Shown here: positions 5,396 to 64,000 of the stretch, piece by piece
Numbering within the stretch: the stretch's first letter is position 1
Layout of the letters: every line of letters begins with the position of its first letter
Assembly: GCA_024679065.1 (NCBI GenBank)
Contig: JAGIQG010000002.1
Location: 68,014,001 to 68,078,000, forward strand
Length of the DNA: 64,000 nucleotides
Source of the DNA: Sphyrna mokarran
Taxonomy: Eukaryota
Direction of reading: 5' to 3'
Program-made: the position numbers and the translations under genes
The notes under the pieces: generated by a model
The model's database searches: none
Told to the model about the DNA's origin: nothing
What the model saw: the letters and a program-made list of their open reading frames with translations, nothing else

Positions 5396-5979
5396 GTGGG
5401 AATAGAGCTCTTACAGCATATTTCCTTTGCTGCAACTCCAGTGTAACAGCACAGGAATAATTTGTTCTATCCACATTCACAGCAAGCAGTCTTGTCCTTC
5501 AGGGTTATAGGCAGTGTTTTCCTGCGGTGTTCAGAGCCTCAACATTGGGGCTGGATGGAAGGACCAAGCCTAGACTGGCCAGGAGCCTGACTGTGAAAGC
5601 TGTTTCCCCAGAGATAGCCTACATAGAAACATAGAAGATAGGAGGAGGCCATATGGCCCTTTGAGCCCGCTCCACCATTTATTGAGTTGGATGATCAGCC
5701 ATGATCGTAATAGCCTAACCCCGCTTTCTCCCCATAACTTTTGATCCCAATCACCCCAAGTGCTATATCCAATTGCCTCTTGACTACATTCAATTTTTTT
5801 GGCATCAACTAGACTTCTATCCAGCCCCAAAGTTGAGGCCCTGAATACCACAAGCAAACACTGCCTATAACCTTCAAGGACAAGACTGCCTGCTGTGAAT
5901 GCGGATAGAACAAATTATTCCTGTGTTGTTACACTGGAGCTGCAGCAAAGGAAATATGCTGTAAGACCACTATTCCCAC
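5396..5979. repeat. Inverted repeat, ~166-bp arms (5396-5561 / 5814-5979)
   Basis: Arms are reverse complements at roughly 90% by eye. Confidence 0.9.
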
Positions 5980-16099: not shown

Positions 16100-16590
16100 A
16101 ACTTAACAATGCTTGAAAAGACTCATGGGGCTGGTTCCAGGAATGAGGAATTTCAGTCCTGTAGCTGAACTGGAGAACCTGGGGCTATTCTCCTCAGAGA
16201 AAGAAGGTTGAGACAATTGAGACATTAAAAATTATGAGGGCTCAGGACAGAGTAAATAAGAAGAAACTTCCCACTCGTGAAAGGAGAGAGTACAAGAAGG
16301 TACAATTTTAAAGTAATTGACAAAAGAAGCAAAAATGATACCAGGATAATCTTTTACATGCAATATGGACTAAGATCTGGAATGCATTGCCTGACAGTGC
16401 AGTGGAGGCAGGTTCAATCAATATATTCAAGAGAAATATCTTGAACTGTTATCTAAAAAGCAGGAATGTGTAGAGTTATGATCAGAAAGTAGAGCAATGG
16501 CACAAGATGCATTGCCCATTCAGACAGCCGGTGTAGACATGATGGACTGAATGGCTTCCTTCTGTGCTGCAACATTTCTGTGACTCTGAT
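16100..16590 (+). mobile_element. Old CR1 3' fragment
   Basis: Degenerate LGLFSxE and WNALP coding remnants, tail (attctg)n. Confidence 0.65.
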
Positions 16591-18214
16591 TCTGATTCTG
16601 AGATTCATCACCTTCAGGAGAAGGCAGAAAACTGCAAGAAAAGGAGTATGATTTATTTTACTTAATCTGGAATAACACATTGAATGATTTGCATTTCTTT
16701 ACAGGAATTCAAAATTATATGAATAGCCTGGAATCAAATGCAAATTGTGAAGTCATGCATTTATACGAGCATTATATTGTAAAAGAGATAAATAATTTGT
16801 TGGCTGTGAACACTAGATTGAATCTTTCCCAACCACACTCTCATGAACTGCATTCCAGACTTTTACTACTGCGTTTGAAACATGTTATGCCCCTGCTACT
16901 TTTGCTTCTTTTATCAATTGCTTTAAATGTGTCCTTTTGTTCTCAACTCTTTAGGGAGTGGGAACAGTTTTCCTAATCTACCCTGTCCAAACCCCTCATG
17001 ATTTTGAAAACATTAATCAAATCCACACTCACTCCCCTTCTGTCTAAGAGAAACAGTCCCAACATCCAAACATGTGCCAGTTAGGTGGTTTGGCCATGCT
17101 AAATTGCCCCTTAATGTCCCAGGATGTGTGGGTTAGGGGGATAGGTGGGTAAAAACAAGTATAGGGCCTGGGTAGAATGCTCTGTGAGAGAGTCAGTGCT
17201 GACCTGACGGGTCAAATAGTCTCCAACAGCACTGTAGGGATTCTATGATTCTCTAATCCATTGTTTGATGCAGTGTGTTTCTTTTTCTTTTTGGGGCAAA
17301 TTACTTATTAGTGTGGAGCTATATTAAGCAGAAGTGGCTGCAGATTTTCCAGGCAGCAGTTTGGTTCGGACTTGCAGGGAAACAGATGATAACAGAAACT
17401 GATGAGCGTAATTTTAAATCCTAATCTTTGCTCATTGAAAATATCGAAACCATTCTTAACAGGACAGAAGCTGAGTTCTTTCAAACAGGACATGGAGAGT
17501 GGGCATTGCAAATATTTAATTAAAGGAAACTCTTCAGCAGTCATTTCCACAATTAGAAAGCAAGAAGGTTTTTACACTCAGTGGTGAAATATGTTTAGAT
17601 TTTCAGACAATGTCATCCTGAAAGCAGAGTCAATAACGGCAAAATTTAATGAGGTTTGTGAAAGATTGCACTTCTTGAAGGTTAGAATCAAGCAAAACTT
17701 GGTGGATAGCCCTATTGAAATGAAAAGTCACCTTCCACGAACAATAATTCACTGGATTTCTATACTTTCACTGCTACTTTTGAGAAACTGTTTTATTTCA
17801 ACTGCTTCTAAATATGCCTCTAACTATGAGATAAAGTAGTGGATGAGGATAAGTCTTTCCAAAATCTGTCTCACTAACTAAGGAAAATAAATACTGTTCC
17901 AAGAAAATCATATGTCCATCTAACTCATAAATATACTGGTGCTCTGAGCTTATCGATTATTTTATTACTTTGTAATCTTTCTTACCTGGATATTCATTTG
18001 TATTGATTGCTGAGAACATAATTACTAAGAAAAAGACTATCCTGATGTTGGTTGTATGGATTTAGTCGGCGTGATTGCACATGCTGCTAAGAACATTGTG
18101 GTTTCAAAACCATTAGGATATTGTGATAGCTCTTAATCAATAACCTGCATTATGAGTAACATTAACGAGGGGAAGTAGTATACCTAGAAAAGCACACAGG
18201 GACAAAACAATGTG

Positions 18215-20629: not shown

Positions 20630-21930
20630 AAATTTTGCTTAGGATGTGGGTGTCACTGGCTGGGCCAGAATTCATTGTCCATCCCTTATTGCCCTTGAGA
20701 AAATGATGGTGAGTCACCTTCTTGAACTACTGTAAATCATGTGAAGAATATACGCCCACAGTACTGATAGGGAAGTCTAGGGTTTTGACACAGAAACAAT
20801 GAAGGAACAGCAATATAGTTCAAAGTCAGACTGGTGAGTGGCTTTGGAGGGAAGCTTGCAGGTGGTGTTTCCATGCATTTATTACTCTTGCCTTTCTCGG
20901 TGGCAAATGTTGTGTCTGTAGAGGTGATGTTGAAGGAGGTTTGATAAGTTACTGCAATGATATAATCACTGTGTGTTAGTGACGTAGGGAATAATTGTAT
21001 AAGGCGCAGTTATGGTGCCAATCATGCATATTTCATTATCCTGAATGGTGTTGAACTTCTTCATTGTGGTGGAACCACATTACTCCAGAAACATGACAGT
21101 ATTTCCTCCCGACTTGCATCTTGTAGGATTATAGACAGGCTTTGGGATGCTCACCACAGAATTCCCAATGTCTGACATGCTGTTGTAGCCACACATTCAT
21201 ATGGTTGGTCCAATTCAGTTTCTGATCAATGGTAACTACAATTCCACCTCCCTCCACCCCATCCTCATGTTGATAGTGGGGGATTCAGTAGTGGTAATAT
21301 CATTGCATGTCTAGGGAAGATGGGTAGATTCTCTTGCTGGAGATAATCATTACCTGGCACAAGTTTAACATGCAGTTAAACAAAGCTGGATAAACGCAGA
21401 TGGGAGAAAACAATGGAATACCTCAGTGGAGTGAAACAAAATGTTTCAGGAGGGACAAAATCTGTGTGTAGTATAAGCACCAGCATAGCCCCGTTTGGAT
21501 GAACAGTCTATGGTTTTGGTGTAGTACATTCCCTGTATAAAGAGTTGTGAACTGTCAGAGTTTAATCCTATTCTTTTACTGACTGGTTATTTGGTGGAAT
21601 TGCAGATTGCTGGCTGATTTGTTTGATTTGTTTAACTTGTAAGGCACAAATGTTACTTTCTACTCATTAGTCCAACCCCAAAAGCTGTCCAGCTCTTGCT
21701 GCATATGGAGATAAATCGTTTTTGTATCTCAGAAGTCACAAATGGTGCTAAATATTGTACAATCACCAGTGAACACCTCCACTTCTAATCCTTTGATGGA
21801 GAGAAGGTGACTAATGAAGCAGCTGAAGATGGTTGGCCCTTAGACACTATCCTGAGGAATACCTGCGAATGATATCCTGGAGCTGGATGGACCTCAACAG
21901 CCCCAACCATCATCCTTTGTGTTAGGAATG
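20630..21930 (-). mobile_element. CR1-group (L2/Crack-like) LINE remnant interrupted at ~21361-21635
   Basis: Reverse complement of the 18215-19060 family, continuing on both sides of the insert. Confidence 0.7.
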
Positions 21931-22433
21931 AAGCATTAAGTGCTTGGTCACTATTTCAACCATGCTGCTACTCTGATCAAAGAGCACTCCATTCAACATC
22001 TAACCAATAAACCTTTTGTGATTAAGGCAATATCTTGAGAAGAAAGATTTCAACTTGCCTGTGACTATAGGCAGTGTGCCTTTCATATGGTTGTAGAATG
22101 TTTGTTATAAAGAAGAAAATGTCATTTAGGCAATCTCAGTTTTTCCATTTCCTCTCTCAGCCTCTCACACTATTCCAGATTATAAGGCCAGCAATCTGCA
22201 ATTCCACCAAATAACCAGTCACTAAAAGAATAGGATTATATTCTCTGACAGTTCACAACTCTGTATACAGGGAATGTACTACACCAAAACCATAGACTGT
22301 TCAGCCAAACGGGGCTATGCTGGTGCTTATACTACACACAGATTTTGTCCCTCCTGAAACATTTTGTTTCACTCCACTGAGGTATTCCATTGTTTTCTCC
22401 CATCTGCGTTTATCCAGCTTTGTTTAACTGCAT
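21370..22433. repeat. Near-perfect inverted repeat, ~245-bp arms (21370-21614 / 22187-22433)
   Basis: Arms differ by about 3 substitutions plus one small indel patch. Confidence 0.95.
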
Positions 22434-28338: not shown

Positions 28339-28657
28339 ATCACTTCTCAGCCTTTTGGCTAAGATCAAGCGTAGTATCGACATGCTGTACTTGGTTGAAG
28401 TCATTAAGTTACATTTTAGTTACATTTGAAGCAATTTTTTAAAGCAACATCTTGACCTTTTGGTTAAGATGCAAATGAGATCAAGCCTTGGAGGCGGGGC
28501 TATGCCTCCTCCAATCAGGTTGGATCATGTAGATCAAGCCCAAGACAGGAGACAAGAACCCTGTCTTGTCAGCTTGGATTGGGAATGTCTCAACTTGTTG
28601 GGACTCTGAATTGGATTTGAATTGATTGGATTGAATTGGAATAAAGAATAAAAAAAA
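28339..28657 (+). mobile_element. U2 snRNA-headed SINE-like retroposon / retroposed U2-variant RNA
   Basis: 28339-28378 matches U2 nt 1-40 at 37/40 (ATCACTTCTCAGCCTTTTGGCTAAGATCAAGCGTAGTATC); the body is not canonical U2 and has several hairpins; tail (TTGAA/TTGGA)n + AATAAAGAATAAAAAAAA. Confidence 0.7.
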
Positions 28658-37254: not shown

Positions 37255-38360
37255 AAAAATTGAAATCAAAAGTGAAAATGCTGGATAATCTCAGCAGGTC
37301 TGGCAGCATCTGTGAGGAGAAAAAAAGAACTGATGTTGAGCTAGATGACCCTTTGTCAAAGTTAAAAGGCATGGAAAGTGGGAGATATTTATACTGCAGG
37401 GGGAGAAAATGAAAGATGGGCCAAAGCCACAGAAACCAGAGGAAAAAACTGCTAATAGCTGGCAAGAGAGAGAAAGGATGCAAATGGTCAAATAGCAGAG
37501 AAGCTTTAACTGATGAAGATGTGGGAGGAAGGGGTGGATGGAATGGGACAGGGGTAAAATGTAGAAAAAGGAAGTGGGAAGAGAAATAGTAAGGGAAGGG
37601 GATGAAATAAGAGGAAGGAGTGGGAACAAGGGAGGAAGAAAAATGAAGACAGACAATAAAGAAATAAAAGATAGAGAATAGTAAAGAAATTAAAATAGAA
37701 ATGAAATCAAAGGGTACAGCTTGCCACTTTAGCTCCCATGCCCACATATTTATCCTCGATTTGCTGCAACATTCTAGCGAAGCTCAACGCAAACTGGAGC
37801 AATAGCTTGTCATCTTCAAGCTAGGCACTTTACAGCCTTCCAGTCTCAACACTGAACTTAACAACTCCACCTTGGCCCCCTTTGTTTTCATTCTATTTTA
37901 ATTTTTTTTTAAACTGTTCTCTACCCTTTTGTTTGTCTTTCTTCATTTTCTTCACCCCCTTCCCACTCTTTCCCCCTACTTCATCCCCCTTCTCTAACCT
38001 TCTTCTCCCCCAACTTCTCCTTTTCTACATTCTACCTCAGTTCCATTCTCCCCAACACATTTTCATTTGTCACAGCTTACAGCTTCTCTGCTGTTTGGCC
38101 ATTCATACCCTTTATTCTCTCTGTGGACAGCTATTAGCAGTCTTTTTCCCTGGTTTCTATAGCTTTCACTCATCTTTCATTCTCTCCCCCTGCAGTATAA
38201 ATCTCTCTCACTTCCTATGTTTTTTAATTTTGACAAAGGGTCATCTGGATTTGAATTATAAGCTCTTTTCTCTCCTTACAGATGCTGCCAGACCTGCTGA
38301 GATTTTCCAGCATTTTCTCTTTTGGTTTCAGATTCCAACATCTGCAGTATTTTGCTTTTA
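37255..38360 (+). mobile_element. Penelope-like element: inverted pseudo-LTRs flanking a GIY-YIG endonuclease C-terminal remnant
   Basis: 37716-37868 translates TACHFSSHAH..ILDLLQHSSEAQRKLEQ*LVIFKLGTLQPSSLN; 37255-37710 is an inverted copy of 37881-38360. Confidence 0.8.
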
Positions 38361-62075: not shown

Positions 62076-64000
62076 CAATAACACTTGAACTTCGATGTTG
62101 TGGCCATTTCAGAGACTTGGGTAGAGCAGGGACAAGAATGGATGTTGCAGGTTCTGGGGTTCAAATGCTTTAGTCGGAGTAGAGAAGGAGGTAGAAGGGG
62201 GGGAGGAGTGGCATTATTAGTCAAAGACTGTATCACAGTGACAGAAAGGAAGTTTGATGAGGACTTGTCTGTTGAGGTAGTATGGGCTGAGATTAGAAAC
62301 AGGAGAGGAGAGGTCACCCTGTTGGGAGTCTTTTATAGACCTCCTAAAAGTTCTAGAGAGGTAGAGGAAAGGATTGCAAAGTCGATCCTGGACAGGAGTG
62401 AAAGTAATAGGGTAATTGTTATGGGGGACTTTAACTTTACTAATATTGATTGGAATAGCTATAGCTCTAGCTCGTTAGAGGGGTCAGTTTTTGTACAAAG
62501 TGTGCAGGAAGGTTTTTTGACTCAGTATGTAGATAGGCCAACTAGAGGTGAGGCTACATTGGATTTGGTGCTGGGCAATGAGCCAGACCAGGTGTTAGGC
62601 TTGGAAGTTAGTGAACATTTTGGTGATAGTGACCACAATTCGGTTACGTTCACCTTAGTGATGGATAGGGATAGGCATGAAGCTGGGGGCAGTAGTTATA
62701 GCTGGGGGAAGGGTAATTATGAGGCCATCAGGAGAGAATTAGGGTGCATAGATTGGACTAGGAAACTACAGGGACTGGGAACATCTGAAATGTGGAGCTT
62801 ATTCAAGGAGCAGCTGCTGCGAGTCCTTGATAAGTATGACCCTGTCAGGCAAGGAGGAAATGGTCGAGTAAGGGAACCTTGGTGTATGAAAAAATTTGAT
62901 TCGCTGGTTAAAAGGAAAAAGGAGGCTTATGTCAGGATGAGGCTTGAAGGCTCAGTTAGTGCAATGGATAGCTATAGATTAGCCAGGAGGGAGCTAAAGA
63001 GTGAATTGAGGAGAGCTAAGAGAGGACACGAGAAGACTTTGGCTGATAGGATTAAGGAGAATCCTAAAGCTTTCTTTAGATATATTAAGAATAGAAGATT
63101 GGTTAGGACAAGATTAGGGCCAGTCATAGACAGCAGTGGGAAGTTGTGCGTGGAGCCTGAAGAGATTGGAGAGGCACTGAATAAATATTTCTCTTCGGTA
63201 TTCACGCAGGGTGATGTAAATGTAGTTATGGAGAACACTGAGGTACAGGGTAGCAAACTGGAAGGTATCGAAGTAGATAGGGAGGATGTGCTAGATATTC
63301 TCGAGGGTTTGAAGTTGGATAAGTCCCCTGGGCCGGACGGGATTTACCCTAGGATTCTCTGGGAGGCAAGAGAGGAGATTGCAGAGCCTCTGGCTCTGAT
63401 CTTCAGGTCGTCGTTGGTTACGGGTGTGGTTCCGGAGGACAGCGAATGTGGTCCCATTGTTCAAGAAGGGGAAGAGAGACCTTCCAGGGAATTATAGGCC
63501 AGTGAGTCTTACTTCTGTTGTGGGCAAAGTATTGGAGAGAATTATTAGGGATAGGATTTATAGTTATTTAGAGAGAAATGAATTGATTGGGGATAGTCAG
63601 CATGGTTTTGTGAAGGGTAGGTCGTGCCTTACTAACCTCATTGAGTTTTTTGAAAAAGTGACCAAAGAGGTGGATGGGGGTAAGGCGGTTGATGTGGTAT
63701 ATATGGACTTTAGTAAGGCGTTTGATAAGGTGGCCCATGGAAGACTTCTGCAGAAAATGCAGATGTATGGGATAGAGGGTGATTTAGCTAATTGGATAGG
63801 AATTGGCTAGCAGATAGAAGACAGAGGGTGGTGGTTGATGGGAGATATTCATCGTGGAGTTCGGTGACAAGTGGTGTGCCTCAGGGGTCTGTTTTGGGGC
63901 CCCTGCTGTTTGTATTTTTTATAAATGATCTGGATGAGGGTATTGAAGGATGGATTAGTAAATTTGCAGATGACACTAAAGTCGGTGGAGTGGTAGATAG
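62076..64000 (+). mobile_element. Young 5'-truncated CR1 LINE ORF2 (APE endonuclease + RT), frameshifted, antisense in an MTRR intron; runs off the window
   Basis: ISETW, GGGVA, YRPP, GDFN, LDL, SDHN endonuclease motifs; [38 protein letters not shown] motifs; frameshifts near 63440 and 63800. Confidence 0.95.

Follow-up and report, generated by a model that had tools for sequence, protein, structure and literature searches.

A U2 snRNA-headed, SINEU-like retroposon family in a shark genome, with probable masters in U2 genes

Introduction

SINEs headed by snRNA sequence were described from crocodilians as SINEU-1, -2 and -3, and the available text of that study reports that none was found outside crocodilians (Kojima 2015, PMC4494074). 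How SINEU elements are transcribed is stated there as an open question, and the accessible part of a later paper still treats it as undemonstrated (PMC5786205). An autonomous LINE of the Tx1 clade, Keno, is described as U2-specific (Kojima and Fujiwara 2004, via PMC4494074, PMC4640811 and PMC6136364). Its reported hosts are frogs, fish, lancelet and hydra; sharks are not named in the accessible portions of the same three papers. In the open-access main texts searched, no snRNA-headed SINE is recorded from a cartilaginous fish, and there is no chondrichthyan case in the available text of PMC5786205, PMC7245038, PMC4758252 or PMC5499810. Here we describe a U2-headed element in Sphyrna mokarran, the family to which it belongs, and its relation to U2 genes and to a Keno-like LINE.

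Results

Structure of the element

In the window, the whole 64-kb stretch of DNA that was analysed, Rfam gives a single match, to U2 snRNA at 28339 (48.9 bits against a gathering threshold of 46), and the alignment is good over the first ~40 model positions only. The match heads an element consisting of U2 nt 1-40, a ~270-bp body and an A-tail, with the following features:

28339..28378, + strand: head, U2 snRNA nt 1-40, stem-loop I and branch-point-pairing region (Rfam RF00004; 37/40 to an intact U2 gene)
28379..28609, + strand: body, common to all copies, multi-copy, with a stable predicted RNA fold
28447..28470 (about), + strand: internal second U2 stem-loop-I piece, U2 nt ~4-27 (22/24 in better-preserved copies)
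28610..28638, + strand: degenerate pentamer repeat tail (TRF; conserved across 30 aligned copies)
28639..28657, + strand: A-rich tail with its poly-A signal (resemblance to the terminus of the LINE described below is confined to ~13 nt about the signal)

A sequence-only reading of this DNA had placed the start of the element exactly at U2 nt 1, with 37 of 40 matches and two CpG-type G>A differences, had noted that stem-loop I and the branch-point recognition sequence are kept and that a pentamer-like tail is present, and had seen neither a PSE upstream nor a U2 3′ half. Each of these points is borne out. Against an intact U2 gene of the same genome (L031), the head matches at 37/40 positions and the match stops at nt 40; the differences are CpG-type G>A at nt 4 and 11 and T>C at nt 32, leaving the branch-point-pairing hexamer (U2 nt 33-38) intact. 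The repeat tail is followed by the poly-A signal and an A-run, and no U2 3′ half is found at the locus. No PSE is present upstream, the score being -4.1 compared with 11-22 for seven real U1/U2 genes scored by leave-one-out. Absent from that reading was the second U2 piece within the body, which is also an Rfam match in another copy, L162 (U2 positions 7-26), and is likely an older head.

The window copy agrees with the column majority of the family at 253/271 positions over 28379-28649. Its body has a fold z of -3.8 (-4.5 in L162), and no covariation was detected in the body (term +0.27; any two-sided change in 4/30 pairs). A search of the body for other RNA families in Rfam gave chance matches only, and no TSD is recognisable at the window copy, the best being 4 bp with one mismatch allowed. 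We considered and rejected a Pol III SINE with an internal promoter in its head: there is no tRNA in the window, Rfam finds U2 only, and the element contains internal T-runs of 4-6, which argue against Pol III transcription.

Several other features lie in the window. Inverted repeats of 245 bp with 97.6% identity bound a ~1.06-kb segment at 21370-22433 that looks like a young MITE or hairpin-like element. Further inverted-repeat pairs are located at 5396-5979, 16225-17008 and 37261-38330 (91%, 71% and 78%, respectively), and a well-preserved LINE ORF2 occupies 62082-64000, with a 471-aa endonuclease frame followed by RT, and runs off the window end.

A high-copy, decayed family

A search of the genome with the body yielded 2,908 candidates, 40 of which were scored and gave 45 matches, the best at 88-92%. 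A body 20-mer allowing at most one mismatch has 2,740 matches genome-wide, compared with 0 for the reversed control. This number is a lower bound on copy number, and from divergence we estimate the family at about 4,000 copies.

For closer study, 70 loci on contig C1 were taken in positional order after selection by an exact 20-mer, so that the sample leans towards conserved copies. The copies start at or before head nt 36 in 60/70 cases, nt 20 in 54/70 and nt 10 in 35/70, and none of the 70 aligns upstream of U2 +1; a similar spread of starts is seen in dispersed plain U2 retrocopies. All 30 copies that were aligned have the same junction between head and body. The 70 copies are on average 91% identical to the column majority, with a maximum of 95%, and at this level (~91%) the family appears extinct in the source genome. 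A tree of 104 rows shows a main group of star-like shape beside subfamilies that are older, most branches being weakly supported. No target consensus emerges at dispersed sites (63 SINE and 29 LINE flanks versus 645 background sequences, p > 0.13). The family is a short, non-coding, poly-A tailed, high-copy and uniform U2-headed retroposon.

These results uphold the earlier proposal of a dispersed U2-headed SINE family and bear out the shared 5′ start for which a test had been suggested. The body is multi-copy and tied to the U2 head elsewhere, so the window copy is not a plain truncated U2 pseudogene. Looking for TSDs had also been suggested, with a divided outcome. Sixty-six copies have a tail that allows the test, and 12 of them show a TSD of at least 10 bp, while 30 shuffles give a mean of 0.37 and a maximum of 2. 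By the same test a TSD is lacking in the other 54 and in the window copy, which counts against the reading preferred below.

DNA sequencing runs matched at shares of 0.2-0.43 carry five coded organism labels or none, a hint that the family is common to more than one species; no RNA run is among those listed. Inverted pieces of a second copy adjoin the tail or head in L153, L160 and L245, and in each of two SINE pairs (L004/L012 and L217/L252) both members were inserted into one abundant repeat at equal or neighbouring positions.

Copies within U2 sequences

Contig C949 carries four intact U2 genes, 8 kb apart, all of which are uninterrupted. A fifth, decayed U2 unit (L273) lies ~39 kb downstream of them, and it contains a copy of the element. 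The order at this locus is U2-gene upstream sequence, U2 nt 4-37, element body, A-tail, U2 nt 40-191 and U2-gene downstream sequence; the head is single and continuous with the native U2 upstream region. A search for PSE-bearing master copies had been suggested earlier; L273 lies within a U2 gene whose native flanks are kept, but its PSE scores only 5.7. The decay of L273 (82%), its PSE score and its intermediate subfamily all weigh against masters in U2 genes, as do the uninterrupted state of the four intact genes and the failure to find an in-gene master of the main subfamily or of the window copy's subfamily.

Targeted searches identified 11 loci, L273 among them, at which the SINE tail runs into the 3′ part of U2. 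U2 resumes at nt 38-40 in seven of these, at nt 42 in two, at nt 46 in one and at nt 52 in one. The joins at nt 38-40 coincide with the 3′ target of Keno in U2 as given in the available text of PMC6136364, and Utopia is described as using the same U2 site in that of PMC4640811. The U2-joined copies are spread over the oldest, intermediate and main subfamilies, and 0% of 200 bootstrap trees unite them as one group. Among five exact tandem-dimer junctions, three are placed in the head of the older copy at nt 38/39, and these three have the tail type of the window copy's subfamily. On the other hand, a U2 3′ half follows the SINE in 0/70 sampled copies, which speaks against masters in U2 genes, and the upstream U2 flank is kept at L273 alone. 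The remaining 10 U2-joined copies may have been inserted into pseudogenes of U2, given that the 3′ flank is found on plain U2 retrocopies too. For a similar reason, the U2 3′ flank on four promoterless chimeric copies was discarded as proof of read-through: many plain U2 retrocopies share it. No convincing TSDs surround nine whole chimeric units. One copy, L259, carries an extra head in the form of a second U2 6-47 piece.

Dispersed U2 retrocopies with ~35 nt of the gene's 3′ flank and without a promoter (L037-L047, L053, L059, L060) were likely copied from unprocessed pre-U2 RNA, given that flank and the missing promoter. In the cluster, a second interrupted U2 unit (L073, L056; G000:C949:17390900-17393600) consists of the decayed end of a Tx1-type ORF2 with its tail, which runs into the 3′ part of U2; the 3′ UTR differs from that of the main LINE family described below. 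A SINE copy near the cluster (L065; G000:C949:17313400-17313700, minus strand) has ~35 upstream bases resembling those of the in-gene copy, is flanked by a ~170-bp direct repeat and has no PSE. Elsewhere, at L022:1094-1861, U5 snRNA sequence starting at about its nt 33 comes after a SINE copy, 550 bp beyond a further U5 gene that is disrupted, a possible case of secondary targeting of U5.

A probable partner LINE of Tx1 type

The genome holds 2,062 candidates of a decayed LINE of about 5.2 kb. Its ORF1 has two ZCCHC3-type domains, its RT match is strong (E 1.8e-32), and its APE match is weak (PF03372, E 3.4e-4, below the cut-off, in 1/4 fragments); PDB searches with two fragments of the endonuclease region returned nothing relevant. 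We take this ORF1/RT/APE architecture to place the LINE in the Tx1 clade. Among 12 relatives of ORF1, eight are named from sharks or rays and one from pike, which lends indirect support to a cartilaginous-fish host. TSDs of ~15 bp were read by eye, and most LINE copies lie away from U2.

Nevertheless, the LINE shares the U2 site with the SINE. A tail-to-U2 pattern search gave 16 matches (control 3), of which five join the LINE tail to U2 nt 38 onward, three are SINEs and eight are unrelated; the LINE tail is joined to U2 also at L052 and L056. The earlier proposal of a link to U2 genes or to a U2-targeting element is therefore supported by the 11 U2-joined loci, by L273 and by a LINE at the same site. 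Two of the eight near-full-length LINE copies carry U2 heads (U2 1-57 or 14-58) and four carry U1 5′ pieces, followed in three of these by U2 ~30-52. The crocodilian Tx1-Mar likewise carries U1/U2 heads according to the available text of PMC4494074. The LINE subfamily of L209, L212, L213 and L215 begins with U1 sequence, after which comes a remnant of the U2 target, and in L213 a 14-bp TSD flanks the U1 start, which suggests a second LINE master lineage in, or captured from, U1.

The LINE tail lies directly upstream of the SINE in 5/70 copies, as against 2/2,825 control windows, and at 5/30 LINE loci the LINE is followed without a gap by the head of a SINE, with head nt 17-31 duplicated at L129. 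This adjacency shows that the two share sites; it is silent on which enzyme moved the SINE. The window copy had also been read as a possible non-autonomous derivative of a U2-targeting element, and a LINE with the same 3′ tail had been envisaged. Neither proposal fits the Keno-like LINE found here. In a profile search against its eight near-full-length copies and the cluster's older Keno-like piece, the body matched through the U2 head only (best other E 0.21), and the shared tail amounts to ~13 nt at the poly-A signal and nothing longer. The absence of homology in the body excludes a simple deletion derivative of this LINE.

Search for a promoter

No PSE precedes any of 35 near-full-length dispersed copies, the maximum score being 7.3 versus 11-22 for the seven genes. 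An snRNA-type promoter in the body that drives the next tandem copy was rejected, as the best PSE there scores 4.4 and is matched by 56% of 500 shuffles; the octamer, considered as a promoter element of the body, is absent from the oldest subfamily.

Discussion

We consider it likely that the family is a SINEU-like retroposon, now extinct, whose masters resided in U2 genes and used the U2 promoter, with the Keno-like LINE as its mover. From sequence arrangement, we infer both transcription from the U2 promoter and the identity of the enzyme. The former is likely because some copies lie inside U2 sequences at one fixed site. The LINE endonuclease would cut U2 at +37/38 and insert the body; the U2 upstream promoter would then produce a Pol II RNA made of U2 1-40, body and poly-A, polyadenylated at the master's own signal, such that the "head" would be the host gene's own 5′ end. 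The LINE RT would copy this RNA through its A-tail, mostly into unspecific sites, where the insertions would be promoterless, dead copies like that in the window, and an occasional re-insertion into a U2 gene would found a new master. The family may have ended when U2 units carrying a copy were lost and the LINE decayed.

Three other explanations have to be weighed against masters in U2 genes. As Kojima proposed for SINEU in 2015, the head may have been captured once and dispersed masters transcribed from chance flanking promoters, the U2 insertions being by-products of a Keno-like enzyme. The lack of an intact in-gene master, the dispersal of nearly all copies and the 10 of 11 U2-joined copies that lack the U2 upstream flank and may sit in U2 pseudogenes are all compatible with this account. 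Flanking promoters, however, should leave shared 5′ extensions, and LINE tails aside there are none in 70 copies; moreover, the end of the head coincides with the target site, and L273 has its one head continuous with the native U2 upstream region. We thus regard a single capture as unlikely. The element could instead be an internal-deletion derivative of another U2-targeting LINE, either a second Keno lineage or Utopia, with a LINE UTR as its body. Its target site and U2 head are the same as in full-length copies of the LINE, and one LINE family was examined in depth; yet the body profile found the U2 head only in the eight LINE copies and the older Keno-like piece, and 0/70 copies continue into LINE coding sequence except via a separate LINE tail, which makes such an origin quite improbable.

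Independent chimeric retrocopies, in which U2 RNA is joined by template switching to a headless repeat at each insertion, would account for extra heads such as that of L259, and U2 itself has been retrocopied in the source genome. Template switching is expected to give variable junctions in a minority of copies (available text of PMC4494074), but the same junction recurs in the 30 aligned copies and the head is present in 60/70; the uniform junction already largely refutes this explanation, and we give it hardly any credence.

With masters in U2 genes as the preferred reading, the head, the target site and the promoter of the host gene fall into line: the Keno site of a U2 gene holds one copy, and thousands of dispersed copies begin at U2 +1. 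A LINE with a specific target could in this way give rise to a class of SINEs, by a route that is concrete and open to testing. Because the family appears extinct in the source genome, direct tests would have to use related species or constructs. More tentatively, and with somewhat less than even confidence, we suggest that the family is an unreported SINE lineage of cartilaginous fish parasitic on U2 genes, in which the head is the target gene itself and successive masters went back into U2 genes for as long as the family lasted, and that this explains how snRNA-headed SINEs are transcribed.

Among known systems, described here from the available texts, Keno has the same U2 target site, and the partner LINE has a Tx1-type ORF1, RT and a candidate APE-type fragment; Keno differs in being autonomous and described as U2-specific, whereas the shark SINE is non-coding and both SINE and LINE are mostly dispersed. 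Utopia is alike in its U2 site and tandem insertions, but it has a restriction-like endonuclease, unlike the candidate APE-type fragment of the partner LINE here (PMC4640811). R2, co-transcribed with its 28S target, resembles the proposed masters in that the target gene supplies the promoter (PMC4494074). R2, however, occupies rDNA, while here the gene would be a Pol II snRNA gene and the co-transcribed piece of the target would be retained as the head.

The closest likeness is to SINEU-1, -2 and -3. As far as the available text of PMC4494074 describes them, they share with the shark family (I) a length below 500 bp, a U2-derived 5′ head, a poly-A tail and internal oligo-T; (II) an internal promoter not found, TSDs in a minority of copies, tandem copies and nested heads; and (III) an associated LINE of Tx1 type that carries U1/U2 heads but has no 3′ tail in common with the SINE. 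They differ in their crocodilian hosts and in their preference for Mariner-N4_AMi; the insertion site of the shark family, in contrast, is U2 itself, at nt 38-40, and one of its copies lies in a real U2 gene. By its structure the shark family is a SINEU, set beside the crocodilian families by description, and it extends the class of snRNA-headed SINEs from crocodilians to cartilaginous fish.
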